Under the pieces are notes generated by a model. The model had not been told where the DNA came from and did no database searches. It saw only the letters and a program-made list of their open reading frames with translations. From NCBI GenBank assembly GCA_030688365.1, contig JAUYIE010000003.1, positions 30,417-94,416 on the forward strand: DNA of 64,000 bases, given 5' to 3'. This document shows positions 6,666-30,623 of this stretch, in pieces; the stretch's first letter is position 1, and each line of letters begins with the position of its first letter. Position numbers and translations under genes: made by a program. This DNA comes from a bacterium (lineage in GTDB: Bacteria; Patescibacteriota; Patescibacteriia; JACQRZ01).

Positions 6666-6919
6666 TCATTTACTCCTTTAAAATCGTGATTTGCTCCCAA
6701 TCTAGGAATAAATCAGGGTTTTAAACCTTCGTCTCACCACACCTTATCGTAGGAAATCGCGGACGTTAAAAAGCGGTTGAAACGATCCAATACGGACACC
6801 TACCGTGGAAAATCGCAGTACCTTAATTAAACAAAAGATAGGAAAACCTATCTGTAAACTATCCTTACCTCAGATCATAGATATGTTGGTATATACAGAT
6901 TTTTTACGAAGGAAACGGC

Positions 6920-7123: not shown

Positions 7124-7185
7124 TGTTAAGGTAACATTGCCCGGAGATACTGATCTCCCCAGTGTACCTTAACAATTAAACAACG

Positions 7186-7401
7186 ATGTCAGACTTACGT
7201 ACTACAATGACCTGCCCAGAATTACTCACTCCCAAGGAGGTTATGAGTGTTCTTCGCATCTCCCCAGCGACCTTTTATCGGATCATTGAACAGCGCCTCA
7301 TCCCCTTCTACAAAGTAGGCCGAGGTCTCCGGTTTGATAAAAGCGATATTGTGGGATACTTAGCCGGTCAACGTATTAAGTCGGCGTCTGAATGGAAATG
7401 A
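7186..7401 (+). CDS. Excisionase/AlpA-like DNA-binding protein (HTH_17/MerR-like Xis family).
   Basis: 71 aa. The motif LLTPKEVMSVLRISPATFYRII...IPFYKVGRGLRFDKSDIVGYL is typical of phage excisionase/AlpA regulators. Its 3' end overlaps the integrase ORF. Confidence 0.6.
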   Translation: MSDLRTTMTCPELLTPKEVMSVLRISPATFYRIIEQRLIPFYKVGRGLRFDKSDIVGYLAGQRIKSASEWK

Positions 7402-8543: not shown

Positions 8544-8577
8544 AACAAAAAACCATCCAATAAAGGATGATTTCCTG

Positions 8578-8652
8578 TGGTGCTCTCGCCAGGAGTCGAA
8601 CCTGGATTGCAAGATCCGCAATCTTGCGTCCTATCCATTGAACGACGAGAGC
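8578..8652 (-). tRNA. tRNA-Arg, anticodon read as GCG.
   Basis: Hand-folded cloverleaf on the minus strand: GCTCTCG-TC-GTTC/AATGGATA/GGAC-G-CAAGA/TTGCGGA/TCTTG-CAAT-CCAGG/TTCGACT/CCTGG-CGAGAGC-A-CCA. It has a GTTCGA T-loop and an encoded CCA. Confidence 0.75.
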
Positions 8653-8675: not shown

Positions 8676-9158
8676 TTATAATCGAAGTCTGCGAGTGAGC
8701 CAATCACCTAATGGTTCGTTGACATACTCGTTGCTTTCTTCAAGATAATCACAAAGAAAATCTCGCACTTCTCGCACTTCATGTTCGCGATGTGTATGCA
8801 ATGGAATCTTTACGACATGTTTCATTCCCCGTTGTGTCTGCACATACAACACATGCCCCACTTCTGTCTCTATGATCCAAAATGACTCAATATCAGTAAA
8901 TGGGTACCGTTGTTTTCCTAATGAAATACCCTCGGGTGAGAGAATGCACTTGATTTGAACCGGCGTCTGAAGAGAATGCGCAAACAATATGATCGTTACC
9001 ATGATAATCAAAAGTGGAAACGTAAAATTTTGTTGAGAAACACTCCACACCACCAAAAGACCTACTACAAGACCCGCAATAACATACCAAGATGTACTGC
9101 GATGAGGTATTTCATATTCAGGAAATGACCACTCTAACGTTGTATGATGTTTTTGCAT
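8676..9158 (-). CDS. Membrane protein of 160 aa with 2 TM segments, sitting between two tRNA genes. Hypothetical.
   Basis: Hydrophobic segments YVIAGLVVGLLVVWSV and LLIIMVTIILFA. No motif recognised. Confidence 0.4.
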   Translation of the reverse strand: MQKHHTTLEWSFPEYEIPHRSTSWYVIAGLVVGLLVVWSVSQQNFTFPLLIIMVTIILFAHSLQTPVQIKCILSPEGISLGKQRYPFTDIESFWIIETEVGHVLYVQTQRGMKHVVKIPLHTHREHEVREVRDFLCDYLEESNEYVNEPLGDWLTRRLRL

Positions 9159-9306: not shown

Positions 9307-10041
9307 TCAACGGACAGGCGTATGGCGAGGTGGTATACCATGCGCGAATACAAGGGCGGAAATCTTCTCTGCACCAGCCATGCGCAATGCACGTGCTGCT
9401 GATCTGAGTGTAGCACCAGTTGTGGTCACATCATCAACTAAAATAATTCGTTTAGGTATATCACGAGTACACACCACAGAATAAACGTCTTCCATATTTT
9501 CCCATCGTGCAGACACGCCCAACGTTGCTTGTGGGGCACGTGCTACTGTGCGTATCAACAATCGTGAATATATTGCTCTTTGACATACCTGCGCTATACC
9601 TTGTGCTAGACATAGAGATTGATTAAATCCTCTCTCTTTGTAACGTATTTTATCCAGTGGTATCGGCACAATAGCATCCGTATCGCTATATTCATCAATC
9701 ATACGTGAACCCAAAATGATACCAAGATCCATGCCCAATGCTTCTCTATACCCATACTTTAATGTATGTATCATATGAGCGATGTGCACATCATCATAGC
9801 GATATCCTATCCATAGATCATCTAAACCCCAAAGTCTTGAGCAACTCTCACAAATATTTGATCGTTCGCTTGTCCCACGACACCACGCGCACACGTTTTG
9901 AGGCCATGACGTCAGAGTATAGACACATTGGCTACACAAAAAAGCGCCTTCTGTATTACAGACGACGCAAAGACGCGGAAAAAGAATATCCCAAAATACA
10001 TCTCCAACACGATGTAGCGTATTGCTCAAAAATCGTTGCAT
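9307..10041 (-). CDS. comFC: ComF-family (ComFC) phosphoribosyltransferase-domain competence protein.
   Basis: N-terminal double Cys pairs (CVVCNTEGAFLCSQC ... CAWC...CESC). C-terminal PRTase motif ILVDDVTTTGATL. Its start overlaps the stop of the upstream gene by 1 nt. Confidence 0.75.
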   Translation of the reverse strand: MQRFLSNTLHRVGDVFWDILFPRLCVVCNTEGAFLCSQCVYTLTSWPQNVCAWCRGTSERSNICESCSRLWGLDDLWIGYRYDDVHIAHMIHTLKYGYREALGMDLGIILGSRMIDEYSDTDAIVPIPLDKIRYKERGFNQSLCLAQGIAQVCQRAIYSRLLIRTVARAPQATLGVSARWENMEDVYSVVCTRDIPKRIILVDDVTTTGATLRSAARALRMAGAEKISALVFAHGIPPRHTPVR

Positions 10042-10652
10042 TATTCTTTCCAGTCCACCGAATCAACGAGCCACACGCTCCCTTCTTTCATCATCTGTAT
10101 GGTCGCATCTTGATTATACACCTTACTATTTGTCACCGTGCCAACTGATTCCTTTCTTTGTACTGTCATCGTGATTTGGGCATCAATATCATTCATGCTT
10201 GCAACATGATACGAAAGAACAGTGGTGGTCGTACCTGCATAAATGGGTTGATACTCTACACTCTTCACTTCAGCAATCTTGTCTGTTGCCCATGTTTTCA
10301 ACGACTGTGTCATAAATGGTAACAATATCTCCAGATTTTTTCCGTTTCCTTGATTAGAAAAACTTCCCAACCGCTCAACAAACGGCACCGCTATAGCAAT
10401 CAAATCCGATTCTGCAGGTTCTAGCGGTGTCGCCGGTACTCGCGCCGCAGGATTGTCTGTCGTCGACGTAACAGGAGTTGTATCTGTACGTACAGTAGTG
10501 GTATCTTGCGGGGTTACTTGTGTTTGTTCATCTTCAGGCAGTGGCGTCTGTGTGTTATCGGGCCTCATAAAAATAATTGCACCGACAATCGCGAGTACCA
10601 CAACAATACCACCCCCAATGAGAATAAGTTTTGTCCGAGTTGTCATAATCAT
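10041..10652 (-). CDS. Membrane-anchored protein of 203 aa with an N-terminal TM helix and a Thr/Pro-rich linker. Hypothetical component of the T4SS-like operon.
   Basis: TM segment LILIGGGIVVVLAIVGAIIF. Low-complexity TPQDTTTVRTDTTPVTSTT. Translationally coupled to comFC. Confidence 0.45.
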   Translation of the reverse strand: MIMTTRTKLILIGGGIVVVLAIVGAIIFMRPDNTQTPLPEDEQTQVTPQDTTTVRTDTTPVTSTTDNPAARVPATPLEPAESDLIAIAVPFVERLGSFSNQGNGKNLEILLPFMTQSLKTWATDKIAEVKSVEYQPIYAGTTTTVLSYHVASMNDIDAQITMTVQRKESVGTVTNSKVYNQDATIQMMKEGSVWLVDSVDWKE

Positions 10653-10665
10653 ATAATAAATATTA

Positions 10666-12543
10666 TTATTCTAATCCTTTTTCTTCTGCAAATTCTTCCT
10701 TTGCTTCCTCAATCTCCAAAAGCTGGCGCGGGTCAGTCGTAATCAGCTGATCTTCAGCATACGATGCCACTACTTTGATAGCCGCATGTTTCTGTCCAGC
10801 GAAGAAAATACCTTCCCCGGGTGCTGATTCAAGCAATAGATATTTCTCTCCTTCTGTAAGTAAAAATGTTTCCTGAATCAAATCTATGGACGCAGTAGAT
10901 TGTTTTAACAAAAGTTGAATAGCCGAGTTGGTCAAAATCGCCTTGCCGTATTGAGAACCAAGAAAATCGTTTACATCTTGAGTGATGGTGGTCAATCCCA
11001 AATAATATTTACGACATCGCTTTGCAAGCGCGTACACAAATTTTGCCGAATCCTCGTGTTGCATCAACCACCACGCCTCATCAATAACCAATATACGTTT
11101 TTTCATTTCCGAGCGCACGACGTTCCAGATATAGTTTACCACCGTATAGATGGCAATCGGTCTCAATTCGTCTTCCAAATCACGAACAGAAAATACAACC
11201 AATTGATTCTTTGTATCTACGTTCGTCGGTTTATTAAACAATCCAGCGAACGTGCCTTCAGTATATTTTTTTAGCTTCGCAACCAGTTCTCCCCCGCCTT
11301 CCATACCTTCCAACACATCTTGAAAATCGCTCATTGTTGGAGATTCTACGCCTTTGCTGAGATCCACATCTGGTGTGATATCTTTCTTTGCGTATGTTTC
11401 AATAAGAGCGCGATCAACAATAGAATCTTCTTGTTGAGTAAATGACCCTAACATGAGACGGAATAATCCTTTTAACATAATAACTGCACTTCGGATTGTA
11501 TCTGCTGTGGAGGTGGTATCGCCTACAGGTCGTGGTAAGTCAAACGGATTGATACGTGCAGTTGAAGAAAGTGCGATATTGATATATGTTCCACCAACTG
11601 CTTCGCATAGATGTTGATACTCGCGCTCCGGATCAATCACGATTACGTCCGTCCCCAACATCATTGAACGCAGAATTTCCAGTTTGATTGCGTAGGACTT
11701 GCCGGCGCCAGATGTCGCAAACACCACAGAGTTTGCATTCGGCATTGAAAAACGATCAAAAATAATCAAGCTATTATTATGTCGATTGATGCCGTACATT
11801 ACCCCGTTATCTGATGTTACATCCGAAGACACAAATGGAAATGATGCGGCCGCAGGCGACGTATTCATATTAAAAGGAATCTGAAGTTCATCAGAACCTA
11901 CTGGTACAGTAGAATTGTATCCTTGTTCCGCCTGATATAATACTCGTTTTGTATATACCATCTTTGCCGCATACAACGCCTCCACATCCTCCGTCAATTT
12001 ATTCAATTCATCCAGTGTTGATCCATACAACGTCATATACATACCGACAGAAAAAAAATGTTCAGTGCCAATCGTCAGGTCGTCACGCAATTTTTCGACG
12101 TCAGACATAGCACTTTCGGCCATTGGATCACGTGCCTTACCTTGTTCCTGTGCGGTAGAAATCTCCGCTTCCAAGCGTCCTACTTTCTCTTTGAGCTGTT
12201 TCAAAACGTATCGAGCGGGCAATGGTGAAAAATGCAATGCAATATCAAACGTAGCACTGTAATTAATGATATCTGCAAACCAACCGACGTTTAAATACCG
12301 AGGATACCCGACAACAAAAACAGTACGAGCATACGCGCTTCCAATACGTACATAATTTGACTGTACTTCCAGCGCGGACGGAGCGATTAAGTCACGGATA
12401 GTCAAAATCCCCTTCCTATATCTCAATTCTTCTTCAATGGCTTGCTTTTCATCTTTCACCTGCGCAGCATTGAGAGCTCGTTTCTCCTCTTCTATGGGAG
12501 AACGTCCTTTTTCGGAGATAGTTTGAATTGGTTGAAATGCCAT
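10666..12543 (-). CDS. virB4: VirB4/TrbE/CagE-family type IV secretion ATPase, C-terminal ATPase portion of 625 aa.
   Basis: Walker A: VVFATSGAGKSYAIK. Walker B: RILVIDEAWWLMQHED (the DEAW signature of VirB4). Also a downstream TTITQ motif. Confidence 0.75.
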   Translation of the reverse strand: MAFQPIQTISEKGRSPIEEEKRALNAAQVKDEKQAIEEELRYRKGILTIRDLIAPSALEVQSNYVRIGSAYARTVFVVGYPRYLNVGWFADIINYSATFDIALHFSPLPARYVLKQLKEKVGRLEAEISTAQEQGKARDPMAESAMSDVEKLRDDLTIGTEHFFSVGMYMTLYGSTLDELNKLTEDVEALYAAKMVYTKRVLYQAEQGYNSTVPVGSDELQIPFNMNTSPAAASFPFVSSDVTSDNGVMYGINRHNNSLIIFDRFSMPNANSVVFATSGAGKSYAIKLEILRSMMLGTDVIVIDPEREYQHLCEAVGGTYINIALSSTARINPFDLPRPVGDTTSTADTIRSAVIMLKGLFRLMLGSFTQQEDSIVDRALIETYAKKDITPDVDLSKGVESPTMSDFQDVLEGMEGGGELVAKLKKYTEGTFAGLFNKPTNVDTKNQLVVFSVRDLEDELRPIAIYTVVNYIWNVVRSEMKKRILVIDEAWWLMQHEDSAKFVYALAKRCRKYYLGLTTITQDVNDFLGSQYGKAILTNSAIQLLLKQSTASIDLIQETFLLTEGEKYLLLESAPGEGIFFAGQKHAAIKVVASYAEDQLITTDPRQLLEIEEAKEEFAEEKGLE

Positions 12544-12550
12544 ACAGTTA

Positions 12551-13249
12551 TTATGACTCTACTTGAATTTTAGAAACGTCCACCATTTTTTCTCGGGTTG
12601 CCACGTCAGGGTTATATGTATTGTAATACAATTCTATAAGACTCTGTGTCTCCAATCGCACTGCGTTTAATCCCATACTAGAAAGGCCGTTCATGACATT
12701 GCTGACTCGTTGTTCCAAAAGATGTTTTCTATCCTCAAATTCCTGGTGACTTAATGCCAATGCCCTGTTGGTAGATATAAGCGCCTTTACTTGAGGCCAA
12801 AAACCATTCTTCTTATCCGATACAGGATCATAGGGCACGACAATAAAAAATTTCTTACTTGTAATATCCGAAAGTTCAACCATTTCTGAAATAAATTGAC
12901 GGTAGTCGGAAATCTGTAAACGCAACAGATCATTTGTCTGCTCTTTTTCCTTTTTTTCTAGACTGGATAAATAGTTATCAATATCAAGATTACGAGACTG
13001 GATGACAATCTCCAACGGAAACTCAATGGAGTTAAGAAACTGCATATATCCTTGAATGGTAGCGTTTTGTTCTTCTTCTGACTTCAATGAGAAGTTCATA
13101 GACGATACCAAAAGCACAGCACGTAATGTACCGTCTTGCATTACCACTACCCCTTCATGAATCTCCGCCATAGGAAGATATTTCTGGGTTGCAGGCGTGG
13201 AATGCGTTGCGTGAGGCGATTTTTCAATTTTTCCTTTCGTATTGGCCAT
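12551..13249 (-). CDS. Probable VirB4 N-terminal domain encoded as a separate 232 aa ORF. This would be a split or frameshifted virB4.
   Basis: Begins with a motif typical of VirB4/TcpF N-termini: VVVMQDGTLRAVLLVSSMNFSLKSEEEQNATIQGYMQFLNSIEFPLEIVIQS. Its stop is 7 nt before the ATPase ORF start, in a different frame. Combined length is about 857 aa, which is normal for VirB4. Confidence 0.5.
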   Translation of the reverse strand: MANTKGKIEKSPHATHSTPATQKYLPMAEIHEGVVVMQDGTLRAVLLVSSMNFSLKSEEEQNATIQGYMQFLNSIEFPLEIVIQSRNLDIDNYLSSLEKKEKEQTNDLLRLQISDYRQFISEMVELSDITSKKFFIVVPYDPVSDKKNGFWPQVKALISTNRALALSHQEFEDRKHLLEQRVSNVMNGLSSMGLNAVRLETQSLIELYYNTYNPDVATREKMVDVSKIQVES

Positions 13250-13254
13250 GAGCG

Positions 13255-13728
13255 TTATGATGATTTTATGTCACGTTGATTCTCACCGTGGTAGGCACCA
13301 CCTGTATCAACAATCAACGAGAGTTCCGAAAGTCGTTGTGCCGATGCGCTATCTTTTTCGTGGGGCAGACGATTACGTCGTTCAGTTGCTTCCATTTCCA
13401 GTCTATCTGCTTGTGCTTTTTCTAATGCTTCCCATTCTTTTTTTGTCGGTTCTTTTTTCCAAATCCGCAAACGAGGACGCGTACCGGATTTTGCAATGTT
13501 CAAAACAAAAAAATGAAATGGCTGACCATTTATCTTCAAAAAAGCGACGGTGCCGGCAATCCCGGCAATAATAATGCTTCCCAAAATAAAATAAACGGTA
13601 TCGACGACTTTATATAAAATGAACATGAGACCAAACCCCGCGAGAATGATAAGAAATTGACGAACGCTAAGAAACCATAATATCTTATCTTCATTTTCAA
13701 TAAATTGTGGAACGGTAAACTTTTCCAT
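13255..13728 (-). CDS. PrgI/VirB3-like small 2-TM T4SS protein.
   Basis: 157 aa. The N-terminus MEKFTVPQFIENEDKILWFLSVRQFLIILAGFGLMFILYK and a second TM segment resemble PrgI-family proteins found upstream of VirB4 in Gram-positive-type T4SS. Confidence 0.5.
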   Translation of the reverse strand: MEKFTVPQFIENEDKILWFLSVRQFLIILAGFGLMFILYKVVDTVYFILGSIIIAGIAGTVAFLKINGQPFHFFVLNIAKSGTRPRLRIWKKEPTKKEWEALEKAQADRLEMEATERRNRLPHEKDSASAQRLSELSLIVDTGGAYHGENQRDIKSS

Positions 13729-13785
13729 GGTGTAGATACCTCGAGCGAGGTGAGTACATTATTATTGTACCACATTATCAGGTTT

Positions 13786-15897
13786 TCAGAAGCGTAACAT
13801 CTCATTGAGTTCCATAAGCGCGTCAAATTCTGCTTCTGAAAGTGCGGATTTTCCTTGAGTCGTACGCGTTGCTATTGTTTCTGCTATCCCCTTGCCTGAA
13901 CCAAAACTTTCCTGTCCGATCGTGGTGTATAGCGAATGAACCTCACTTTGTTTCCACGCGTTGATACCTGCAACTTTTTTTGACGCCGAATCTTTCTCTA
14001 ACAGTTTGATCTTTTGATAAATACGTTTTGTAGCGGCTTGGGGATCATTTGACAACCTTCTAAAATCTTTCAACGTAAATGCACGGAGTTCATCCACAGG
14101 ATCCATCAAACGAGGTGGTACTTTTACGTCGGTCAGAGGTACTGTATATAGTGATGGCGTTCCACCTTGACGTACCGTTATTTCACGCGGTGGGTTTTGA
14201 CGTGAAGACGCGACTGATGGTTTTGCTGGTGTTGCAAGAGTAGACGCGCCAGACGACAATTTTGGTGTTTGTGAATTTCGCGCGGATGGAGATGTATCAT
14301 GTGCTTTCTCAACAATCATTGGCACGCCATGGACATCTTCTATGGCAAGACGTGGTTTGGGTTGCGGTGTAGGTGTATCAGCGTGAGGTACTTGTGTCGT
14401 ACGACCGGATACGCCAAAACGAGGATGCTGTTTTATCCGAGAACGAGATCCGAGAGGATTACTGTTCGCAACTGGTTTTGAAACAGGAGATGATGTAGAA
14501 GAAGGAGTATCGCCTTTTTGTGATGCGGTAGGCGTAGGATCAGTAGACGCTATTGGCACCGATGGCTTCATGATGGCAAAGTCAGGAATATCTCCGTGCG
14601 CGATCATATCAGCATATTTACTTGCTTCTTTAGTAAGACGAATCGCCACTTTGTGATCAAATTGTTGACCCGCTTTTTCAAAGCTTTCTATCAAAAACTC
14701 TCGTGTTTCAATGGCATCGCGGATATCGCGTATGCGTTTTATAATAATATTGCGAGTCGTATGTAACAGTGTTGCGTCCGGGATATGCAAGTCAATCGTT
14801 TTTATTACTCTATCGGCAATGATTTCATAATCAATGGTTTGCATTGATGGTGTAGGTGACGATGGAGGTGGTGGTGTGGTATCCGAAACTGGGGACGGAG
14901 TATGACCAGCGGGTGCTGTCGGCGATGTATCCACTTTTGCATCCGTCGTATCACCGCCATCTTGCTCATCATCATAGTGTAATTGCTCTTTTTCTATTTG
15001 ATCAAGCATGTGCTCTGCCTTTTGCGCATCATAAGGCAGGAAGTGCCAGTCATCGGGAGGCATTGATGCTAGACTTCGCGGATAATTGCGAATCGTTGCA
15101 TATAGCTCACACAGCTGACGTACAAGTTGTTTATCTTCTGCAGATAAACTCGTGATATGCGAAGATGTACCCAAATACTTGGCGATATTAATAGATGACA
15201 GATTGTTTGCTGAAAATGAAATATAATCACGAAGCCAGTTTTGTACTGACGAAGATACTGTTTTCCCGTCCAACTCCAATCTACCTTGACTCACATTTTC
15301 TGTATTTGCCAATAATAAATCAGCAAGTTTCTTATTAAAATCATCAATATTTGCCAAACATATATACAAACTATGATCCAGTTTGTATTTCACCATATCG
15401 GAAGACTCACGAAGTATATGGACTATGCTATGAGAGAAGATATCCTCAAACGCCTCTGCTTCCGAAGCGATATTTTCTGGAGTATTCCGCTCTGCGAGTT
15501 CTTGGGCTGACTCTGTTATGACTTTTGTTAAATATGCAAAAACAGGACTGTGAGTAGCAGTTTCCATTGCCCCCCCTAATGTACTGATAATGGATGTCAA
15601 GTCGCCAAAAATATCAGAAAAAGGCGCGCATATATTGACAAGAAGTTCTTGTGTTGCAGTTTGAGCATGGTCAGCATCCAATGCCAACTCTGACTGCAAC
15701 GTTGTCATTAAGTCCGATGGCGCCAGTTCTTTGATAAACAAACGACGAATAATGCGTAAAAGAATCTCGTTATGATCATCGCCTATATCATATCGTTGAT
15801 TGAAATCAATCAAAAAGTTAACCACATCAATAGAGTTTACCGCGTCCTGGACGGTGATTGGCAATGTATGAAATTTTGAAATACTATTGTCTTGCAT
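13786..15897 (-). CDS. Hypothetical 703 aa protein with a long Thr/Pro/Ser-rich low-complexity centre. Encoded inside the T4SS-like operon.
   Basis: Low-complexity stretches (PTPTASQKGDTPSSTSSPVSKPVANSNP; TPSPVSDTTPPPPSSPTPS). No ATPase motif. Position in the operon is the only functional hint. Confidence 0.45.
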   Translation of the reverse strand: MQDNSISKFHTLPITVQDAVNSIDVVNFLIDFNQRYDIGDDHNEILLRIIRRLFIKELAPSDLMTTLQSELALDADHAQTATQELLVNICAPFSDIFGDLTSIISTLGGAMETATHSPVFAYLTKVITESAQELAERNTPENIASEAEAFEDIFSHSIVHILRESSDMVKYKLDHSLYICLANIDDFNKKLADLLLANTENVSQGRLELDGKTVSSSVQNWLRDYISFSANNLSSINIAKYLGTSSHITSLSAEDKQLVRQLCELYATIRNYPRSLASMPPDDWHFLPYDAQKAEHMLDQIEKEQLHYDDEQDGGDTTDAKVDTSPTAPAGHTPSPVSDTTPPPPSSPTPSMQTIDYEIIADRVIKTIDLHIPDATLLHTTRNIIIKRIRDIRDAIETREFLIESFEKAGQQFDHKVAIRLTKEASKYADMIAHGDIPDFAIMKPSVPIASTDPTPTASQKGDTPSSTSSPVSKPVANSNPLGSRSRIKQHPRFGVSGRTTQVPHADTPTPQPKPRLAIEDVHGVPMIVEKAHDTSPSARNSQTPKLSSGASTLATPAKPSVASSRQNPPREITVRQGGTPSLYTVPLTDVKVPPRLMDPVDELRAFTLKDFRRLSNDPQAATKRIYQKIKLLEKDSASKKVAGINAWKQSEVHSLYTTIGQESFGSGKGIAETIATRTTQGKSALSEAEFDALMELNEMLRF

Positions 15898-15908
15898 GGA
15901 AATAAATA

Positions 15909-18698
15909 TTAGGTTTCATCATCATCATCTACTGGTTCTGTAGCACCGCCATCTTCTGTGCTATCACCAAGATAATACGAATCAAAGTCTCTTCCGGATC
16001 GTTCGCTAACCACTTTTTGGATTGCTTTAGCAAATTTCACATTACTATTTGTTCCTGGTTTTGCGTTATCTTGACCCTCTTTAATCGTCGCTCGTCTGTT
16101 ATCCTTACCTGTCGTCCTCATCACCGCACGAAGAATAATACGCATAGACGGTTTGCTGTGTTTGCTGTCCATCTTATGTACTTCATTTAACATATCAGGC
16201 TTGTTCGCAATGGCTTCCAAGATCGCTTTGGCATACTCATTGTCATAATTATTGGCCTCAAAGCGTTTTTTATCGGTTTTTTCAATCAATTTTTTACCAT
16301 CTTTTCCCGCAAGGATTTCCTTAAACGTCGCGAGATTGACTGCTGCTTCGTTTGGATCTGACCCAAAACTCCCATCCTCCTCACACCCAAACGCCGCCTT
16401 CCACCCTTGATCTAACTGATCTTGTTTGGTAGTATTTACTGTTTCTATAAGTGTCTTGGCATACGTACTAAAATACTTATTATATGTTCCTTTCTTTTTG
16501 TTAATACCTGTTCCGCTTTTGATGTCAAGCTTTTGTAGCTTTTGATCTCCGTTTTTGTCAGTAATCATTCTCCCTTTTGTTCTAAAATTTCCGATTCCGT
16601 TTATCATGCTTTCATAACACGCTTTAGCTCGTGGTGTATTTTTAAGAAGTGCGGTATCAAATCTTGACTCATCTACTATGGCAAACGCGGCTTCACCAAA
16701 CTCATCGTCACTCACACCACCAATCATACCTCTGATGGCGTCAGCATTTTGATTATTCGGGTCAAGACTGCCATCTTTATATGCTTCAATACGTTGTTCT
16801 AAAGTCATACCAAACTGCGTATGTTCTCTGCCGATAGTGGACACAAACGCACTTTTCAATTTTTCATCTCCGGTTCCTTTTAATACTGCCAGGTCTTTAG
16901 CTATTTCTGCTGAACTCCCATATTTACCTTTTTTTGCATACGCAAGAATAGCACCATGTCGTTGTGCCGCAGTAAGTGAAGGATCATATCTTCTTTTGGC
17001 AAGATCTTCGGCAGAACGGTTGCCATCATTTTTTTCTTCCTCTGCCGCTTCATCGTATTGGTAATATTTAGCAGCATTTGATAAGTCTCGTGCACCAGTT
17101 TGCGCAAAACCACTGATCTCATTGCCATATATTCCTGCTGCTACCAAGGGATTCATACTGGCAGCCGACGCTACAAATTTTCCTGCTTCCATCCCATATC
17201 CAGCACCAGATACTGCAGCTCTTTTTGTTTGTAACCACTTTATTTTCCAATATTGTTTGTTCTTTTCTTTTTCATTCCCCTCTTGTTGCGCTTTCTTAAG
17301 TTCTCTTTCTGCTGCCTCTATTTCTGTTGTATAACCAGCTTTTATATTTGTGCGTCCATTTTTGGTTAACACGCCAGCACCGACAGCTTCCGCCCCCTTT
17401 GCAAGCAATTCACCCGGTTTTGCAGCCAAGTTGGCTCCCTTCTCTGCCACCCATCCAATACCAGCCGTAACTCGTTGTGCGTCACGATTTACACCTTTTT
17501 TGCGTGCTTGTTCAAGATTATTCCACACTGCAGCACCTCTATCTCGTGCCCAGCGCATTGGTGAAGGCACAGGAGATTTTCCTTTTGCCCAGTTCATAAT
17601 AGCGCCACTTGCCGCGCCTGCCATCTTCCCCCCTCCGGCTCCCAATTCACTTGCCGCCATCAATGTCGCAACCAACATGCCAATACCCAAGAAATACCCG
17701 ATCACCCCCTGATACGTGCCGATTTCCGTACCGCCGGCATTTAAGCCATCCGGTATACCTTCTTCATTGACGTCTTGGCTTGAAAGCAATCCTGCCGTCG
17801 TTGTCTTGTTGATATCAGTTACCCCATTATTGACTTGCGAAACGACTGCCAAAGAAAGCCACAGAAAAAATGCGGCAACCGGCCCTAACAATACAAGATT
17901 GATAAAACTCTCCCACCATTTCTTTGCGTATTCCTGCCCGCGAGGAACCACATTGAGCATAAACGCCCAGGGTGAAAGCACGACAAGAAACCATAGACCG
18001 ATAATACGCATGATAAAAAACATTGTAAGAGTACTCACCACTATCAACGCAACAAGAATAAACACGAGTGCCAATATAAACGAATATGCATTCCCTTGAA
18101 ACTTGTCAGTATCACCCAGTCCGACAATGGCCATAAATTTTGGAACACCAAGAAGGGTAGCAAAGTTCCCCCCTCCCGCAGATGAAAAAGCAGCAACGAA
18201 CGTATTCATTATGACCTGCGACACATCAATCACAAATCCAGCAATTGTCTTAGAAAAATTTACCAATATCGCCGCCATGATAAACGCCGGCAACATTGTC
18301 CTGTAACTATATTTTTCCTGTTGCAATATGGTACCAATAGCGATAGCAAGTAATAAAAATACAAAAAACATATTTGCCATATCACGCATCACTATCCATC
18401 CAAGCGTCGCGGCTGGTGAAGAAATAAAATCATTATATTGCGCAACGCGTAGCAACACTTGTATGACCACCAAAAGCAAACGACCAAACAACAGCGATAA
18501 TCCGCCTGCAACAACACCGACTGTCATTTCGGCGGTATTTGTCGCGGCCGTACCTAGCCAACCCCAGATATTTGCCGCAGCAAACGTTCCTTGAGATATA
18601 CTAAAAATACCGACTCCAATAGCAAAAAATACCCCTAGCACGAGCCAGTGTGAAAAAAGCGACTTTGAGAGCCGTTTGCACACGTCTTTGAACTTCAT
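15909..18698 (-). CDS. VirB6/TrbL-like polytopic membrane protein of 929 aa, with a large hydrophilic C-terminal extension of about 600 aa.
   Basis: The N-terminal roughly 330 aa have at least 6 hydrophobic helices in the VirB6/TrbL arrangement. The remainder is hydrophilic and rich in Gly/Ala/Lys. It is the first gene of the operon. Confidence 0.5.
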   Translation of the reverse strand: MKFKDVCKRLSKSLFSHWLVLGVFFAIGVGIFSISQGTFAAANIWGWLGTAATNTAEMTVGVVAGGLSLLFGRLLLVVIQVLLRVAQYNDFISSPAATLGWIVMRDMANMFFVFLLLAIAIGTILQQEKYSYRTMLPAFIMAAILVNFSKTIAGFVIDVSQVIMNTFVAAFSSAGGGNFATLLGVPKFMAIVGLGDTDKFQGNAYSFILALVFILVALIVVSTLTMFFIMRIIGLWFLVVLSPWAFMLNVVPRGQEYAKKWWESFINLVLLGPVAAFFLWLSLAVVSQVNNGVTDINKTTTAGLLSSQDVNEEGIPDGLNAGGTEIGTYQGVIGYFLGIGMLVATLMAASELGAGGGKMAGAASGAIMNWAKGKSPVPSPMRWARDRGAAVWNNLEQARKKGVNRDAQRVTAGIGWVAEKGANLAAKPGELLAKGAEAVGAGVLTKNGRTNIKAGYTTEIEAAERELKKAQQEGNEKEKNKQYWKIKWLQTKRAAVSGAGYGMEAGKFVASAASMNPLVAAGIYGNEISGFAQTGARDLSNAAKYYQYDEAAEEEKNDGNRSAEDLAKRRYDPSLTAAQRHGAILAYAKKGKYGSSAEIAKDLAVLKGTGDEKLKSAFVSTIGREHTQFGMTLEQRIEAYKDGSLDPNNQNADAIRGMIGGVSDDEFGEAAFAIVDESRFDTALLKNTPRAKACYESMINGIGNFRTKGRMITDKNGDQKLQKLDIKSGTGINKKKGTYNKYFSTYAKTLIETVNTTKQDQLDQGWKAAFGCEEDGSFGSDPNEAAVNLATFKEILAGKDGKKLIEKTDKKRFEANNYDNEYAKAILEAIANKPDMLNEVHKMDSKHSKPSMRIILRAVMRTTGKDNRRATIKEGQDNAKPGTNSNVKFAKAIQKVVSERSGRDFDSYYLGDSTEDGGATEPVDDDDET

Positions 18699-20199: not shown

Positions 20200-20234
20200 C
20201 TGCTATATTAAATATGAAAATATAGCAGTTTTTT
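20200..20234 (+). terminator. Rho-independent terminator for the lipoprotein gene.
   Basis: CTGCTATAT-(11 nt loop)-ATATAGCAG followed by TTTTTT, located between convergent genes. Confidence 0.5.
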
Positions 20235-23200
20235 ATTGTACTATTTCACATGTCTCCACGTTTTTGGCTCCCCAGTTGTCAGCAATCTCCACACAAATAC
20301 GTTTGCCTTTGGCGCGATCGTTAAAATATGTATGGACAAACTGATGTTCACCGTGCGGAGCTAAGAAAGATGTATAGTTGTTTTGCGATAGCAATGCCGT
20401 CAGTGGACGATCATTATCACTATAATACACTGACTGTTTACCATGACCATCATCCCAATCAATGGATATCATACGCAAAGGTTTTTGTTGATCGTCTACT
20501 GAACTATTGAAATGAATCTCAACAGTTTTTCCGTTTGGCTTGGAAACAATACTAAAACCATCAACAACACTTGTCTTTGCACCATTTGCGCGCAGTACAC
20601 GGGGTTGCACAGCACATCTTCCGGCTTTTCTTTCGATAGTATCCGTAACTGTTTGTGTGCCGTTTAGATTTTTTGTAGCTGCACAATATGCATTGGTAGG
20701 GGGCGTATAGAGAGGAGAATCTCCAATCTGGATATATTTTTTATATGTTGTATCCCAGTGCCACTCTGTATACCCTGTTGCAAAATACTTTTTGAGAAGC
20801 GCTGTACCATTACCATTCCGCTCGCTCAATTCTGCTGCACGTGAACCAAAACACTTCCCCTCCGAACTGCAATCAGAAGTTGTCGTACATATTTGGCCAT
20901 TGCGTGAACCCCCAAGACAGATAGAACTTGCTCTACGTATTGCTTCTACCGACAACGACTGCGCATGTGCGATAGACAAGTCATCGTCGTTAATAATATC
21001 TATTGGTTGTGCCCATTGTTCCGGTTTACTTGTCGGTGGAATCAAAGACATATACTTTGAAATCTCACCAGAAGAAGACAGCACACCTGGAGGATCTTCA
21101 TATTCAATAAAGGGCGCACCTGAACGATCTTTCGGTGTGGTTGGATCCGCAAGTTTTGACTGCCACGGTACTGCTTCACCGTCCTCTTTTACAACCTGCA
21201 CAATATTCGTACAATAGTCCCTTACGTAAATAGTAATAGACACGAACATATCCATCATCTGTCTGTCGTCCCAATTCCATGTGGAATCATCACAATATCT
21301 CCATTGCCAATATTGGATAGTTCCGTCCGGTGCGGGTACCGGCTTTATGCCTATAAAATCACGTCCGATACCACCGCTCGTTTGTGCCTGACATCCGGCG
21401 CCAAAAACTGTATCAGGAGTTACATCTGTAGCTTGCGCGCTGGCGGCCACCATCGTAAATTCTGTTTTCGCGGTTGTAGAAATCACCGGTGGTGGAGCCA
21501 ACCTTCTCAACTCCCTGTACTGTGCATAATCGGGCTTCGGTAGTGCAGTTAATATTGGTCGCGCATCCTTACCGGTAAATGCCCATCCATCCTCATTAAT
21601 AGTTCCACTGCCCCCACCATATGTAACGGTAACAAAGTAAGGACCCTCACCTATACGAGGCATGTATGTTTTGGTCCAATCTTGTCCGGGAAGTGTGTTA
21701 CGAGTACGATGTTCTATCGTATAATCTATTTGCGTGATTTGATCCATGTTTATACTTTTTTCAAAGGCATTGGCTGGTGTTAATTTCATACCAGTATCTG
21801 CGTGTTCTTTTGCACCATCGCTAAGAATCAGCACTGAATCATCAGTTGATACGTTCAATCCGCTTCTTAATTGTGTGTTAGGCTCCACATCAGAATAAAT
21901 GTTGGTGACCGACGCTATACTGACCAACGTTTGTGAAGATAATGCACCAGGTTGTCCAAGGTCAAGTATGACTTCTATTTCTTTTGCTGATTCACCCTCA
22001 ACTGGTGTCGTTGCAAACAACTTTATCACCGCCTTGTATGTTCCCCCTGACGGAGTAAATTGTGTAACTTCAGGAACAATACTCAATCCCAAAGGTGTGC
22101 CTGACATACCTGCAGCAGGTGAAAATGATAGCCACTGGAGATCGCCCGTCCCACCTCGAGATATTGTTTGGATAGATTTTAATTCTGCACGCCAGTGGTA
22201 GACTGTCTCACGTGGAATCGATCCAATGATAATCTGCTTTCCATGGCGAATATCTCCTGATGTCATAGTGATACTGGAAGGTATATCCATTGCCGGCCGA
22301 ACAACCAATGAAACAGGAATTATTGATTGCAAGGATGTTTCTACAGGTGGTGAATCAGAGGTTGGAAAACAACCGCTTGCTGTGTGAGTAGTTGTCGTAA
22401 CTTGTTGTCCTTTGACCACAACAGAACCTTGATATGGTGCAAGTTTGAAAGAAGTATTTTTTGGATCCGAAATATCTGTAACGAGAAATTTATCCTTGAT
22501 GTCTTGGGGGTGGATGAGCTCCGTCTGCACCGCTAATGGATCGTAAGAAGATATGCATGTAGATCCGCCATTAAAAATAGCTCCATAACATTTATTAACT
22601 ATATCACCACCATCACCGCTGACAATACGAGTCGGTGCTGCATCCTCGCTTGTTCCAACTCCGCTTTCTTTTTCTTTAAGCCACGACATGTATGAAGATG
22701 TATCAGTTGTAGGACGTGGACAGTTAATACCTCCTCCACAATACGGAGCCGGACTATTGGAAGATGTCACTGAATCAATACCTAAAGATGTACCAGTGAA
22801 ATCTCGCGTCGTAACCGTTGTGGTAGTCCGACAACATGGCGGGGTGTCATCCGAACCGGGTGAGCATGTTTCAAATGTTTTTATCACCTTACCATATCCT
22901 AGTGGTACCTTATTTGATTTAGGATCATTCCCTTCCACTGTATTCATTAGAGAAAGTGAGAGTGTTTTTGAAAGATTCACTGAATAATTTTTAGGAACAT
23001 ATTGCGTTTCCGGGATACCAACATCAGTACGGAGTTTTTGATGTGGTTGAACAAGATCGTTATTGCAAAGTGGCAATGTCGCAGTTACTTTCGTTTTGTC
23101 AGTCGTACAATTGGTCGCTACCGGTGTCTTAAAAAGATCAGGCACGTCAATGTAGAGCATCTCACTCTTACTAACTCTTTGTTCCGTAACATTTTTTACA

Positions 23201-26200
23201 ACGATATAATACTGTATACCACTCACGGTGTTGGTGCCTGTCGCATTAGATGCTGAAGGAATCGTTATCTGAAAATTTTGATCACAATTCATTTCTTCCT
23301 TAAACTTATAATCAAAACTTTCAAATTTTTGATTAAATTTCCCTTCCGGGATACCGTGCCAAATACCGTCACCCAGGTAATTATACACCACCCGTAAGGT
23401 ATATTTACCTGCTTTATCAGCACATAATGAAGGAGAACTCTTCTGTCCATCAATAATGATACCAATCGGAGTATGGGCATCATAAATAGGTGACATACCA
23501 TCTCTCAAATGGTTTTCCTCATCAACACGATCTTCATTGAGATTTTTACTTAAATTGGTATACCACACTTTTGCAAAGAAAGTATCTTGCACTGGAGAGT
23601 CATCACGCGAAAATTCCGGCGCAATAGTTGGTGTAGCTGTTGGTGTTTCTGTTGGTGTCTCATCTTCAGCGGACAAATCAAGAGTAACTTTGACAGTCTT
23701 GTATGTTTCACCACCCCATACTCCTTCCAGAGGACCCACAGCATAGACATTGACATAGCCCACGACATCTCTATTAATAAATCCCAAAATATCCGATCGT
23801 ATCCCTATCTTCAGAGAGTCACCATCTTTTCCACTATCTTGTGATAATACAATCCAATCACTCACAAAACCGGCCCCCACAGATATTTTACCCGTCCGCG
23901 CTGTATCAACGACCGCTCGCCATTGAAGTTGCTCCGGATGATTTTGTTGTGTTGGATGATCTGTTGTACTAGACACTTTCACACTGCGTGTTTCATTGGC
24001 AAGTGCCTGATTATAATTAAATGTTACATTCTCCGTTGAAACAGAAAGCGCGGGTTTTATCACCTGGTACTCCTTACCTGATACAGCCGCGATGCGATAC
24101 GTAGGCAATCTCTCCGACAAATTTTGTGCAATATGTTCAAAGACGCGTGCGGTATTTGAAAATGCCAGCTTAAGTGAATTCATAATGGAATCCACAAAGA
24201 CAAATGTCTTATGTATACCGCTATCTGCTGTGTATCCCTCTACAAGTAATGTAAACGGCTTACTTATCGGCTTTGTCCCTCCTTCAAAAGTACAATATAC
24301 ATAAGGGTGCTGATATGCAGGTATCAGATGATCATTTACAGAGTTTGATTGTGTTCTTTCTTTCACTGCTTTTACCTTAAATTCAATATAGTTTTGAGAA
24401 TTCGCCTTAGCGACATATGTCTTATCCGCCTCATACTGTGAATATGAGCGACTGGTATCCAAAACCCCAAAAGTATCTAAATGTTCATACTGCTTCACCA
24501 AATAGTCCTCATCAGGATTTGTTGTAGTATCATCCAAGCCACATGTCACACTCGTCCCCGAAGGTACATTGGTAACACGCACCAGCTGTGCAGCACCTTC
24601 TTTTGTAGCAACCAACGTATTATCGCCATTTTCAGTGAGTTGGCCGGTCCTCCCGCCAAATAAAATCTTTGCTTGTGAAGATATCGTTTGACCCCCTGAT
24701 GTATATGGTTCATCTACTAATTCAAACTCCGCATTTACTGCCGGCATAGCCACACCGTTAAGTTTACAAGTAATCACAGCTGATCCTATACGTGCTTGCG
24801 CACCACTCTTTGCACTCGCATATAATGGCATACCGTTTTCTTTTATATCAGCACTAAAGGCAAGCTGACTCAATATAGTAGTAGGTACACCTCCCGTATC
24901 GCATCTAAGCTTATATGCTTCTAATTCAGTATTATTAAATAATACGTCATGTTCACCACCTTTATATACAAGTACTTGCCCCCATGTACCGTAGGCGAGC
25001 GTCCCAGAAAGATATGTCGGTACATGTACGGGAGATGTCCTGGTGGTCGCATCAACAACTTTTATATGCGCACCCTGGGCAATCAAATCATCGGCATTGA
25101 TTGCATTACTAATATCAAATGCAGTGTCGCGTAGTTGCATGGTTGGCCAGTTTATATCCTTGAAACGGAATATAGAGGTGTCTCGTGTTTTCACACCATA
25201 CCCAGTGATGACGTCTGTTGAAGCGGGAACATACGGGGTCATACCTTGTGCACCACCCTTGCTTTGGACACAGTAATACAACGGTTTAGGACCTTGATAT
25301 GCCGGTAATGCATTTTGTCCTTCCAGCACATTCACTTGACCTTGAATATACGAGACGGGATACCAGTTGAGGCAGTATCCTTGATATCCGGCATCGTGCA
25401 CATTATTTATTTTACTCTGGAACAGACTGTTATTCTTTGGATACGATTCTAAACAATACCCATACAATCCATTTTGACGATCAAGATTTTTATCTTGATA
25501 ATAACATGCATCTACCGGAATGGCTTTGGATGACACTGCTTCTCCGGACGCATTATATCCCTGCAAAACATTCCATGACCGTTGTGTCGCATCTGGCGCG
25601 TCCTTTTGTGGATACAAACGACATGAATTTCTAATCCAATCATCATTGTTCCACCCAGTGATCAAGCTGTTCACTAGACGTCCTCCTTGATCTTTGGAAG
25701 CGTCTGCTTCAGATTTCTCATCCCATGCAAACGTACTATCATGTCCACCGGTTACAGTAAACGAGTCATTACCAGAAAGCGCGGGGAAAACAAAATTGGG
25801 TCGAGCAATACCCGAAAGAGTTCGTGCGACAGCCACACCTCCTCTAGAATACTCACCAAGTAAGGCCGAATCGCGAACATACGGCGGGTTATAAAATTCC
25901 GCACATGGTTCATCAGTGCTTCCCCATTCATCACAAGGACGACGTTCAAGACATATTTCTTGTGATTTAGTGGAATCTTTCAGATCAGGAACAACAATAG
26001 ACGAAGTACATGCAAGCCACACCTTACACTGACGATTCAAACCTACCTGATACAACGCGTTCGCGTCCTGTGCTGATCCTCCTGCGAGGAGGTTGATACC
26101 ACCTTCTGGATCTTTGGTTGGATCGTTGTAAATATCATGGGATGTATACACATCTTTCCCTTTTTCTGCCAAAGGATCATGAAAGAGTAAACATCCCACC

Positions 26201-29200
26201 GCAGGGTTCACTTTAGAGCAGGTGTCACCTCCGATTTTGTTTGGCGCTGTTTTTATATAATATGCAGATTGACATGCGCTTTTTCCTCCACCTCCTTGAC
26301 CGTAGTTATCACGCAATGATCCATCGTTCTGACATTCAGGATCAATAATGGCGCGACAATTATTTTCTGATTGCGGACAAAGCGCGGTCATGCCACTTTG
26401 GACAACAGGGATATCTCTAGCTGGCGTTTGATTACAATCAACGATACCCTCACTCTCGTCTTCAAGGATCCAACCCGGATTACGCCCACTGTCACCTTTG
26501 GACCATTTGCACAATTTAGTGCCTGGATCTTTAAAGTAATATAATGATTTAGTAGCAGGATCTTGATATTCACTACATCCTACTTCTGTTGATTGACACT
26601 GTGCTGCCTTTGTATCCTCATGACTTGGATCAAACTTATAATATACTGTTTTCCACTTCTCCTTAGCTTCGCCGATTTCAACACCTGTCTCTTGTACCTT
26701 TCCATTAGAATCTAAAGATGGAATACCAAATGCAGTACACGATTGCGCATTTTTACTACACCGCTTGTCGAGATCAGGTACAAAATATTGCGTATATGCC
26801 GTTCCATTAGCGGGATGTACGGTAAACTTGTCACATCCGACGAATTCCATTTTGCAAGATTCATCCAATGTCGTGAACGCCACCGGCTTTCCTTTTGTAT
26901 CGCTATACAACCTACATCCAAGCTGTGCTCCCAGCCGTGTTTTATCAATCGCGGCAGTACACGATGATGGCACGTTGAGTTTTGTGTCAATAGCATATAC
27001 AACATCTTGCACTTCACTCACAATCACATCATCAATGAAAAACTCGCCACTATCATGCGTGATATGCAAAACAGCCACAAAAGAATCAGCAGTCGTGTGT
27101 ATGTTTGGCAATGCAAATCTTACCCGCTCCCAATCATCGTCTTGGGTATTCAAGAGAAACTCGCCTAACCCATATGAGCCAGAGAGCTCTGGCGAGGATA
27201 GTGATGCGGATACTGTCGCATTGGACGCGCCTTTTACATAAAAAGTTACGATATAACCATACCCGTTATGCAACATTACATTACCATGAGATATTTCAAT
27301 GTCGTCACTTGTTTTCTTCTCAACACGCAGACTGTCACTGTCAGCGACCAGACCACTACTTGATGGCGAAAGTTTACCTGTACTACTCTGCCAACCACCT
27401 ATCGTACCGTCTTCAAAGGTAGATATCAGTCCGGTCGCGATATTACCTGAACGCGTCCCCTCAAAACGACGACATCCTATTGCACTCGGAGAACACGAAA
27501 TGCTGTGCGATGGAGATATCACATATTCCGCGCCTCCCGTTGTACGTCTCATTTCACTACAATCATCTGTCTGATATACGATTAACGCGGGATCTCTATA
27601 AAACGCGTATCCATCACGATTGATATATTCACGGCAAGAAAAAGTATTGGTAAGCGGATTGTCCCGCTGCTCGGAAAATGTTGATTGATCACACTCGCAG
27701 TCAGACGCCCTGTCCGGATCCTTTGGATCTGGCGCACACACAGGCGCATCATTTGCATCTGTCTTTAGATTGACGACAGACAACTTAAATCCACTCGTAT
27801 CTGATCCATACCATGAATAGAATGGCGTTGGCTCTGCCGGAGTTTTTTCACATGCTTGGACGGTGCTGAAATACTGTTTCGTTTCATTGGACAGGTTGGT
27901 AAACTCTGCGCATCCATCCGCTTGTGCAGAACATTGTCGTGCTTTTTCAGGAATAAAAGCCACTGAATGCTCGCTACTATCAAATTGATTGGCGATTTTT
28001 GTATATACTTGAAGACCCGCACATGATGATTCACACTCTTGCGGATTTTTACCGGCTCGGTCTTCTCCCCCATCGTCAGAACTATAATATTCGCATCCTT
28101 GATAGTCTTCTGTACATTGTGTGACAAATTGTTTACATGCTGTTGAGTCAAATCCGTCTTGTTCAAAACCGCATTGGAGGGTGACTGGCGCAATTTTGTA
28201 ATAATCATCTTTATTGCTCCTATCATTGGTAACCAATTGACATCCTTCATCTGACTGATCACACTCTAACGCACCGACTTTTGAATTGAAATATTCTTTC
28301 TCGTCAGTATCAGGAAGATTTGGTTTATATACCCACGGATGGACAGAATCTGTGCTGCGTGTATTGCTATATACCTGACATCCCTTATTTTCATTGGTAC
28401 AGATGGATCCCCCCGAATTACTAAACGCAGGAATAGTAGAAGTAAGCGCGGTTAGTGTAGTACCTTTGTTTGTATTAACAAATGATCTACACGAATCAAA
28501 TTGTTTGTCACAGTTTTCTGCATCAAACTGCCAACTTGGTTGCTCTTGGATACAATATCCATATCGGCCTTGCACACAATTTCCATTCCCATCACTTTGT
28601 AGACATGTTTGTTCATCAACACATGTGTCTTGACGACTCATTTGCGGAACTCTGACATCATATTGGTTATTATTGCCACTCTGAAAATCACTACCACAAT
28701 CAATAACACCGTCTCCATTTGTATCAAATATACACTCAACATCGTTGTCAGTTAAAGCGTTTTCCGGACCATATCCCTCTAACGCGCATCGTGTTGGAGG
28801 CAACTGTAAAATCCATGTATCATCCACTAACCCAAAAAAAGGAGAATCTTCGTCATTAAATCCATCAATCATATCACCCAGCGTACAGCTTTTTGCCTTG
28901 GTTCCATTATCACAAACCGTCGGATATTTTTTGATATACAACGCTGCGTATTCCCACGTAACAGGAATGATACGGTATTTTCGCAGGACTACGAGAGAAT
29001 CATACGGAAGATTCTCCTTTGGGCTGGGTTGAGCTGAGTTACTTTGAAAACCAAACAAATCTGACGTATGCAAGTATCCTTTGCGTATAGCACTTCGGAC
29101 AGTCATACCGGTCTGTAATGCCGTTGCCATACCATCACTCATGACGCGCGCGTCCGGATTACCTATTGTCGGTTCTGCCGACAGACGACTCATCAAGTCA

Positions 29201-30621: not shown

Positions 30622-30623
30622 AT

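Follow-up and report, generated by a model that had tools for sequence, protein, structure and literature searches.

The VirB4 ATPases of Patescibacteria form a monophyletic clade related to the MPF-FATA type IV secretion systems (T4SSs), as reported by Quinonero-Coronel et al. in 2025 (PMC12102498). According to that survey, genes for TrsD, PrgI and VirB6 lie near virB4 in these bacteria, relaxases are almost absent (only 109 across thousands of Patescibacteria genomes) and the genes of type IV coupling proteins (T4CPs) are located elsewhere, while the T4SS loci of the ABY1 class commonly include comF, recG and radA, and VirB8 homologues were detected in only a few dozen proteins (about 50), nearly all of them from ABY1. 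In Southlakia epibionticum the T4SS is essential and comEC is dispensable (Wang et al. 2023, PMC10633639). A 2024 perspective treated the T4SS as a candidate route of nucleotide or DNA uptake, citing the ComB system of Helicobacter pylori (PMC11665869), and in H. pylori ComFC acts in transporting and handling single-stranded DNA (ssDNA), with the ComB T4SS used for uptake (PMC9005727). Here we analysed a stretch of 64,000 nucleotides (nt) from contig JAUYIE010000003.1, referred to below as the window, in which a T4SS-like operon on the minus strand ends in comFC. The locus almost certainly encodes a vertically inherited, chromosomal T4SS of the ABY1 class related to the monoderm MPF-FATA (pCF10/pGO1-like) machinery, consisting of VirB3, VirB4 with a TrsD-like N-domain, an extended VirB6, VirB8 and a lineage-specific soluble accessory protein, with coupling protein, relaxase, VirB11, hydrolase and pilin all absent from the locus.

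Gene set and conserved order of the operon

Positions 9307-18698 of the window are filled by seven consecutive minus-strand open reading frames (ORFs), encoding proteins of 929, 703, 157, 232, 625, 203 and 244 amino acids (aa) in the order of transcription:

15909..18698, minus strand: VirB6-like extended polytopic membrane protein, 929 aa (probable, from topology, position and weak profiles)
13786..15897, minus strand: lineage-specific soluble accessory protein, 703 aa (comparison with relatives and C-domain profile)
13255..13728, minus strand: PrgI/VirB3-like protein, 157 aa, with two transmembrane (TM) segments (PF12666)
12551..13249, minus strand: TrsD-like free-standing VirB4 N-terminal domain, 232 aa (VirB4 and TrsD profiles)
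10666..12543, minus strand: VirB4 ATPase, 625 aa (NF045971, PF19044, PrgJ match, Walker motifs)
10041..10652, minus strand: VirB8-like bitopic membrane protein, 203 aa, or 201 aa per NCBI (AlphaFold2 model and PrgL profile alignment)
9307..10041, minus strand: ComFC, 244 aa, with a double zinc ribbon and a phosphoribosyltransferase-type domain (Pfam, TIGR00201, motifs)

The intergenic gaps from the virB6-like gene to comFC are 11, 57, 5, 7, 13 and −1 nt, and at the last junction, TAATG, the stop of the 203-aa gene and the start of comFC share 1 nt. A divergent plus-strand gene (18829-20175) closes the operon upstream and a tRNA-Ser lies 40 nt downstream of comFC; a promoter and terminator scan scored no better than shuffled sequence. 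An initial annotation, made from the sequence of the window, had described such a seven-gene minus-strand operon with tiny gaps and a 1-nt overlap of its last two genes, and all seven ORFs were found as described. For comparison across species, we took the best 80 of 570 confirmed related stretches, one genome per species. The synteny comparison, proposed in the same annotation, showed that the gene order is conserved over the 80 species, whose VirB4 is 65-86% identical to that of the window, with the VirB3-TrsD-VirB4-VirB8 block being near-universal. VirB4 homologues at this level of identity come from hundreds of species, belonging to the Uhrbacteria, Falkowbacteria, Magasanikbacteria and further Patescibacteria of ABY1 type, and the organism is assigned by sequence to the ABY1 class (Uhrbacteria-like), not to the Saccharibacteria.

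The 625-aa protein is a VirB4 ATPase. It passed the cutoff of NF045971, a model for VirB4-like conjugal transfer ATPases of the CD1110 family (2.6e-109, 366.5 bits against a cutoff of 325), so that the original VirB4 call holds in profile searches, and it also matched Pfam P-loop_TraG (PF19044, 2.6e-29) and, by phmmer, pCF10 PrgJ (2.4e-42), which is assigned to the same NCBIfam family. Walker A (ATSGAGKS) and Walker B (ILVIDE) motifs are present, and CedB gave a generic partial ATPase match (6.6e-10) far under the cutoff. The alignment to NF045971 covers positions 176-730 of 752 only. The 232-aa protein aligns to the N-terminal part of VirB4 profiles (positions 3-183 of 792 and 101-282 of 894), matching NF045975 (4.4e-12), TIGR00929 and NF045971, and reached 1.7e-6 with NF041427 TrsD/TraD, under the cutoff of that model. 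Because this ORF matches the N-terminal profile positions that are missing from the ATPase, the division of VirB4 into two genes, proposed at the outset, is real; and because 79 of the 80 related loci show the same two genes (a TrsD-like gene of about 227 aa beside an ATPase of about 635 aa), it is not a frameshift. The 157-aa protein was likewise correctly recognized as PrgI/VirB3-like: it exceeds the cutoff of PF12666 PrgI (6.3e-8, 33.5 bits, cutoff 27), has two TM segments within residues 24-63 in a TM scan and is present in 74 of 80 loci.

By contrast with these proteins, the 203-aa protein found no match in Pfam, NCBIfam or a PDB profile search, and it was identified by structure. An AlphaFold2 model built from 83 homologues (predicted local distance difference test score, pLDDT, of 84.6) consists of a TM helix (residues 5-28), a disordered P/T/S-rich linker (29-78) and a confidently predicted NTF2-like domain (79-201) of three helices and four strands. 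The family profile aligned to pCF10 PrgL with an E-value of 2.4e-5, and a family of this VirB8 fold follows VirB4 in 75 of 81 loci. The protein had been annotated as a membrane protein and left unnamed; its membrane anchor stands, and the predicted fold makes it a VirB8-like bitopic protein. Therefore, the locus encodes the whole VirB3/4/6/8 translocon of monoderm T4SSs.

The VirB6 component of this set is probable rather than proven. The 929-aa protein has about 8 TM segments in residues 14-354 (TM scan), with residues 1-354 forming the conserved domain, and its gene lies directly upstream of VirB3-VirB4, as in prgH-prgI-prgJ. Thus topology and position fit the VirB6/TrbL-like call made initially, and the profile matches of the window protein itself are weak: it has no Pfam match, NF045848 was reached at 1.2e-4, under cutoff, and its TM core found nothing in the PDB profile search. 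Pfam TrbL, the only Pfam family matched by several orthologues, was matched by 6 of 34 (best 4.6e-5). The family shares an invariant motif, R-x4-W-x5-SP...P...W, and in hhalign residues 228-278 aligned to the central region of TrwI (170-208, E 0.01), with no significant alignment of the same motif to PrgH 154-204. Residues 355-929 make up a hydrophilic, K/E-rich tail of 575 aa, close to the extra C-terminal part of roughly 600 aa noted earlier. Orthologues range from 736 to 1890 aa, with conservation confined to the N-terminal ~370 aa, and the tail is hypervariable in both length and sequence, even among close relatives; in the PDB profile search it gave coiled-coil compositional matches only. 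The stretch directly after the last TM segment (residues 355-420) is basic, with an isoelectric point of 11.4, and by the positive-inside rule the tail is probably cytoplasmic. Tails of single orthologues gave weak matches to toxin domains (Enterotoxin_a, 8e-4; Diphtheria_C, 0.08), which may be chance or may hint at polymorphic effector-like tails. A separate family considered as a short VirB6 was ruled out, being PEP synthase/PPDK.

The 703-aa protein between VirB6 and VirB3 has no TM segment (TM scan). The T/P/S-rich, low-complexity character ascribed to it in the initial annotation resides in two disordered linkers (305-356 and 434-589; 40-48% P+T+S), which separate three helical parts: the N-domain (1-100), a hairpin (357-433) and the C-domain (590-703), which is highly conserved. 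Pfam, NCBIfam and PDB profile searches gave no match, Pfam was also empty on 50 orthologues, and structure prediction, which had been suggested for this protein, returned these helical domains with no match in Foldseek. The protein thus has no known fold among those searched, and the C-domain is confidently predicted to be a new helical domain. Comparison with relatives showed that the 703-aa protein is a fusion of module A (about 1-300) and module B (about 345-703), which are separate genes in many of them, the former as a 300-420-aa gene travelling with VirB6 and the latter as a 430-570-aa gene always preceding VirB3. A word-indexed search yielded 2 homologues, swamped by the low-complexity linkers; homologues were found instead by the C-domain profile, and an exhaustive search with it showed that the C-domain is carried by 2445 cluster representatives at 50% identity. 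In the 150 best matches it sits at the extreme C-terminus, and the full-length proteins are mostly 450-600 aa. Because of its position and predicted cytoplasmic location, we infer that the 703-aa protein is a candidate cytoplasmic platform or adaptor.

Conjugation genes and the neighbouring integrated element

A VirB4 whose best profile is a conjugal-transfer ATPase family, with an integrase and a tRNA less than 1 kb from comFC, raises the possibility that the operon belongs to a conjugative or DNA-export system, either a degenerate integrative and conjugative element (ICE) or a machinery for non-canonical conjugation or release of DNA, with a relaxase and a coupling protein that are encoded at another site or have diverged beyond detection. 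T4CP homologues far from virB4 are indeed found in many Patescibacteria genomes (PMC12102498). However, no VirD4/T4CP, relaxase, VirB11, VirB1 or VirB2 was found in the window, either by a Pfam scan covering all non-overlapping ORFs of at least 100 aa or by six-frame phmmer searches with pCF10 and R388 proteins (PcfC, PcfG, TrwB and TrwC for coupling protein and relaxase). This agrees with the initial annotation, which had seen no VirD4-type ATPase, relaxase or VirB11 and had singled out an adjacent VirD4/relaxase set as the sign of an ordinary ICE. The same pCF10 and R388 queries found none of these within ±10 kb of virB4 in the 80 species; one subclade, which has no comFC, carries a pilin-domain protein. 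In the window, a hidden Markov model built from the T4SS_pilin-domain family of these relatives, and TrwL, likewise found no pilin, and no small ORF with a signal peptide and two TM segments lies near the operon.

The integrase, 760 nt from comFC, belongs to an integrated element of about 8 kb with the following features:

551-8595: the whole element, with a direct repeat of 48 nt at its borders (551-598 and 8548-8595, 81% identical) that includes the tRNA-Arg 3' end
1092-2081: RVT_1 reverse transcriptase
2068-2400: XRE helix-turn-helix (HTH) regulator
5345-5469, minus strand: LOOT RNA (RF03000, 85.9 bits, full-length), directly 5' of a 518-aa ORF (3737-5293)
7186-7401: HTH_17 excisionase-like gene
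7392-8543: tyrosine integrase

Several further ORFs of the island have no assignment, and a repeat domain of the 518-aa ORF recurs in a secreted SNase nuclease whose gene lies outside the island. The att-like repeats exclude the T4SS operon, and no integrase homologue occurs in any of the 80 related loci. Because the neighbouring integrase belongs to this separate island, the T4SS is not an ICE; that form of the explanation, which also finds no relaxase or T4CP, was rejected and is largely refuted, in line with the early view that the operon is not a conjugative element. The remainder of the window holds housekeeping genes (ksgA, glmM-like, mur ligase, gdh, trpS, RNase J, uvrA, leuS, glyA, holA, lgt, pyk and groEL). 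A locus flanked by such genes and vertically inherited, together with the scarcity of relaxases (the 109 recorded in PMC12102498), makes conjugation or DNA export in any form very unlikely, and by its sequence context the T4SS is a chromosomal part of the core genome, of the kind usual in ultra-small Patescibacteria.

Linkage to comFC and the proposed function

The last gene of the operon was annotated from the start as comFC, and this is borne out by Pfam DZR_2 (5e-7) and Pribosyltran (1e-6), both over their cutoffs, and by four CxxC motifs and a canonical phosphoribosyl pyrophosphate (PRPP) loop, IILVDDVTTTGAT. With TIGR00201 comF the protein reached 1.7e-22 and 80 bits against a trusted cutoff of 233, indicating that it is a divergent member. 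comFC directly follows the VirB8 gene in 54 of about 73 informative loci (~74%), which are spread over all major branches of the VirB4 tree, and its position there is reconstructed on that tree as the ancestral state, lost in two subclades. RecG occurs at 23 loci and RadA at 18 related ones, mostly some genes farther along. In this genome RecG lies about 4 kb past the inserted island, beside the secreted SNase nuclease, and RadA was not seen in the available sequence. Just left of the window start (L081:8125-13442) are a HATPase_c-like gene, the SNase-family nuclease (390 aa), NTPase_I-T and RecG; RecG is conserved as a neighbour of the T4SS locus, and the SNase and NTPase beside it are not.

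Since a competence protein that handles ssDNA ends a T4SS operon, the ABY1 arrangement is the most direct genomic hint of DNA handling, and the closest characterised relatives of the window VirB4, being DNA-conjugation ATPases, also count for it. The function we tentatively favour is DNA import feeding ComFC, of which the direction, the substrate and the ComFC hand-off are inferred; an import apparatus, suggested in the initial annotation as one possibility, is a hypothesis already in print (PMC11665869), as is the comF linkage in ABY1 (PMC12102498). VirB4 hexamers would dock via VirB3 and TrsD onto a VirB6/VirB8 channel and power a contact-dependent conduit at the host-cell interface. The ABY1 conduit would take up DNA, and incoming single strands would pass to ComFC, which would be made from the same transcript, and from there into RecG/RadA-type recombination or nucleotide salvage. 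In place of the missing coupling protein, the VirB6 tail, probably cytoplasmic, and the 703-aa protein might form a cytoplasmic platform.

Several observations weigh against import. The VirB6 on which the channel would depend has the weak profile basis described above. The two comFC-less subclades (~26% of loci) carry a DsbA-like gene, or another gene and a T4SS_pilin-domain protein, in its place, and in nine relatives a housekeeping block (PfkB kinase, S-adenosylhomocysteine hydrolase, S-adenosylmethionine (SAM) synthetase, riboflavin synthase, lumazine synthase and riboflavin kinase) lies upstream of virB3 between the two modules of the accessory protein, splitting the T4SS genes into two clusters. 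Tight spacing is not special to the operon either: of the window's 29 pairs of adjacent same-strand genes, 15 lie at most 15 nt apart, including the unrelated pairs ksgA/MFS and TrpRS/RNase J. Thus, the translational coupling to comFC proposed initially stands as an overlap, and as a sign of a functional link it does not, because tight packing is genome-wide and the 1-nt overlap is weak evidence. The window holds no comEC, comEA or dprA, and to our knowledge ComFC acts together with ComEC in every studied system. For ABY1, moreover, the evidence for import is entirely genomic. In S. epibionticum the T4SS is essential and a comEC deletion is viable (PMC10633639, PMC12857230), so that the essential role of the T4SS there does not run via the ComEC pathway.

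If adjacency of comFC is historical synteny, the T4SS would have a role other than DNA, e.g. adhesion, biogenesis of a pilus or surface structure, or uptake of nutrients other than nucleic acids. The tight packing of unrelated pairs, the SAM-cycle and riboflavin genes between T4SS genes in some relatives, and the two subclades in which DsbA or a T4SS_pilin-domain protein has taken the place of comFC in an otherwise unchanged core all speak for this, and the distribution of comFC on the VirB4 tree fits one ancestral arrangement passively inherited. However, the arrangement persists at only ~65% VirB4 identity while other neighbours turn over, and three independent DNA-processing genes (comFC, recG and radA) cluster here (PMC12102498); we consider historical synteny rather unlikely. 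The wide conservation of comFC after VirB8, with RecG/RadA nearby, is a better argument for a link than the overlap. As for the ORFs of about 250 aa that follow VirB8 in the comFC-less loci, a divergent ComFC was rejected: 6 of 10 tested are DsbA-like thioredoxins and the other 4 have no Pfam match. The pilin-domain protein of the comFC-less subclade is about 380 aa long (PF18895 T4SS_pilin, 9.6e-11; L008:13247-14389), and its family occurs in seven other loci and has no homologue in the window.

In another explanation, the T4SS would export protein effectors or other macromolecules that open or reprogramme the host for nutrients, with comFC being a mere syntenic neighbour. The genes around the operon include:

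20233..30621, minus strand: giant 3462-aa protein with N-terminal anchor or secretion sequence and a CBM_4_9 domain, upstream of the operon
18829-20175, plus strand: 448-aa protein, lipobox LSAC, linker rich in T/S, no family match
8676..9158, minus strand: 160-aa protein with two TM segments, between tRNA-Ser and tRNA-Arg, downstream of comFC

The giant gene is preceded at a 2-nt gap by a gene for a 291-aa TM protein (region 20233-31499, minus strand) and the divergent lipoprotein gene stands between it and the operon. In at least nine related loci, large ORFs on the same strand, with C-termini similar to residues 3136-3454 of the giant protein, lie upstream of VirB6, and the protein is an uncertain candidate for a T4SS-associated component, possibly an adhesin partner; the 2025 survey reports no adhesin for Patescibacteria (PMC12102498). 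A giant surface protein that evolves fast and is conserved as a neighbour upstream, a hypervariable VirB6 tail and the weak toxin-domain matches of single tails would all suit effector export. Moreover, Wang et al. took the missing T4CP and relaxase of the Saccharibacterial T4SS as a hint of protein export or some other role (PMC10633639), and effector delivery has been speculated upon (PMC11665869). By contrast, Pfam, NCBIfam and phmmer searches found no effector candidate, chaperone or coupling protein at the locus, the tail is predicted to be cytoplasmic from the basic stretch after the last TM segment, and the toxin matches come from single sequences and are under threshold. Effector export also leaves the wide conservation of comFC, RecG and RadA beside the T4SS unexplained, and overall we consider it, too, rather unlikely.

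Relatives do not share the 448-aa lipoprotein gene at its position; there, an unrelated gene of ~200-300 aa is often found between the giant protein and VirB6. The 160-aa 2-TM protein, a conserved neighbour of uncertain relevance to the T4SS, has no family assignment; counting the window, 27 loci have it, as a rule between comFC and recG. Elsewhere in the window, an 841-aa Mur-ligase protein (35127-37652, plus strand) matches Mur_ligase_M/Mur_ligase_C only from residue 545, its N-terminal part of ~540 aa having no Pfam match.

Returning to DNA import, a bolder version, which we regard as speculative and doubtful, holds that the ABY1 T4SS runs in reverse: DNA of the attached host would be imported in a contact-dependent manner and ssDNA would be passed directly to ComFC, RecG and RadA, with the 703-aa protein and the VirB6 tail replacing the coupling protein. 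If true, such a machine would correspond, in a monoderm, to H. pylori ComB or archaeal Ced, and nucleotides would be acquired by a route independent of ComEC. Patescibacteria cannot make nucleotides, and apart from theirs no T4SS is known to be essential for growth of its own carrier. The locus offers clean parts for pursuing such questions: a complete VirB3/4/6/8 core, a universal VirB8-fold protein mostly missed by sequence searches and a large accessory family (~2400 sequence clusters).

Comparison with known systems

The nearest described relatives are the ABY1 T4SSs of the Patescibacteria clade (PMC12102498), which like the window locus have VirB4 with adjoining TrsD-like, PrgI/VirB3 and VirB6 genes (the last probable in the window), are chromosomal and have no relaxase or T4CP nearby; this genome shares comF and recG of the ABY1-type neighbourhood. 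VirB2-like pilin genes lie near virB4 in many members of the clade and are not obligatory. The Saccharibacterial T4SS has an essential pilin array (PMC10633639), whereas the window locus has neither a VirB2-like pilin nor a VirB1-like hydrolase. The initial comparison to minimal T4SSs of episymbiotic small-genome bacteria thus matches what has been published (PMC12102498; PMC10633639). Where the survey had detected VirB8 in about 50 proteins, a VirB8-fold protein follows VirB4 in nearly every locus compared here, and in the sections of the survey consulted we found no mention of the 703-aa family or its split and fused forms.

Among plasmid systems, pCF10 Prg/Pcf (prgH-prgI-prgJ-prgK-prgL) is collinear with the window in the order VirB6 - VirB3 - VirB4 - ... 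- VirB8, its PrgL resembling the window VirB8-like protein, and staphylococcal pGO1 Trs shares the free-standing TrsD-like VirB4 N-domain (PMC12102498). The window locus differs from pCF10 in having no PrgK hydrolase, PcfC coupling protein, PcfG relaxase or PrgB adhesin, and from both plasmids in its chromosomal location, the 575-aa tail of VirB6 and the extra 703-aa protein between VirB6 and VirB3. An extended VirB6 with a polytopic core and a large C-proximal hydrophilic domain is also known from RvhB6 of Rickettsiales (PMC12857230), compared with which the window tail is coiled-coil-like, compositionally biased, hypervariable and predicted to be cytoplasmic.

Another comparison is with H. 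pylori ComB, in which, as here, VirB4 is the sole T4SS ATPase, VirD4, VirB11 and relaxase are lacking and there is a ComFC connection (PMC9005727; Hofreuter 2001, cited in PMC12102498). That system is diderm, has VirB7/9/10 and moves DNA across the outer membrane only, whereas the window organism is monoderm. Outer-membrane core genes are not expected in a monoderm, and we know of no report of H. pylori comFC within the comB operon.

A relaxase-less chromosomal T4SS, the comF linkage and the import hypothesis are all already in the literature. Because the gene set and the comFC linkage were published in 2025, the locus is a well-resolved example and not a new kind of system, and its description correctly rediscovers a system and an import hypothesis that had both been published, the gain being one of resolution, not of discovery. 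Added to these accounts are the assignment of VirB8 and its near-universality, the fused or split architecture of the 703-aa protein and the size of its family, a hypervariable and probably cytoplasmic VirB6 tail, a giant surface protein that recurs upstream of VirB6, and the exclusion of the operon from the neighbouring island.

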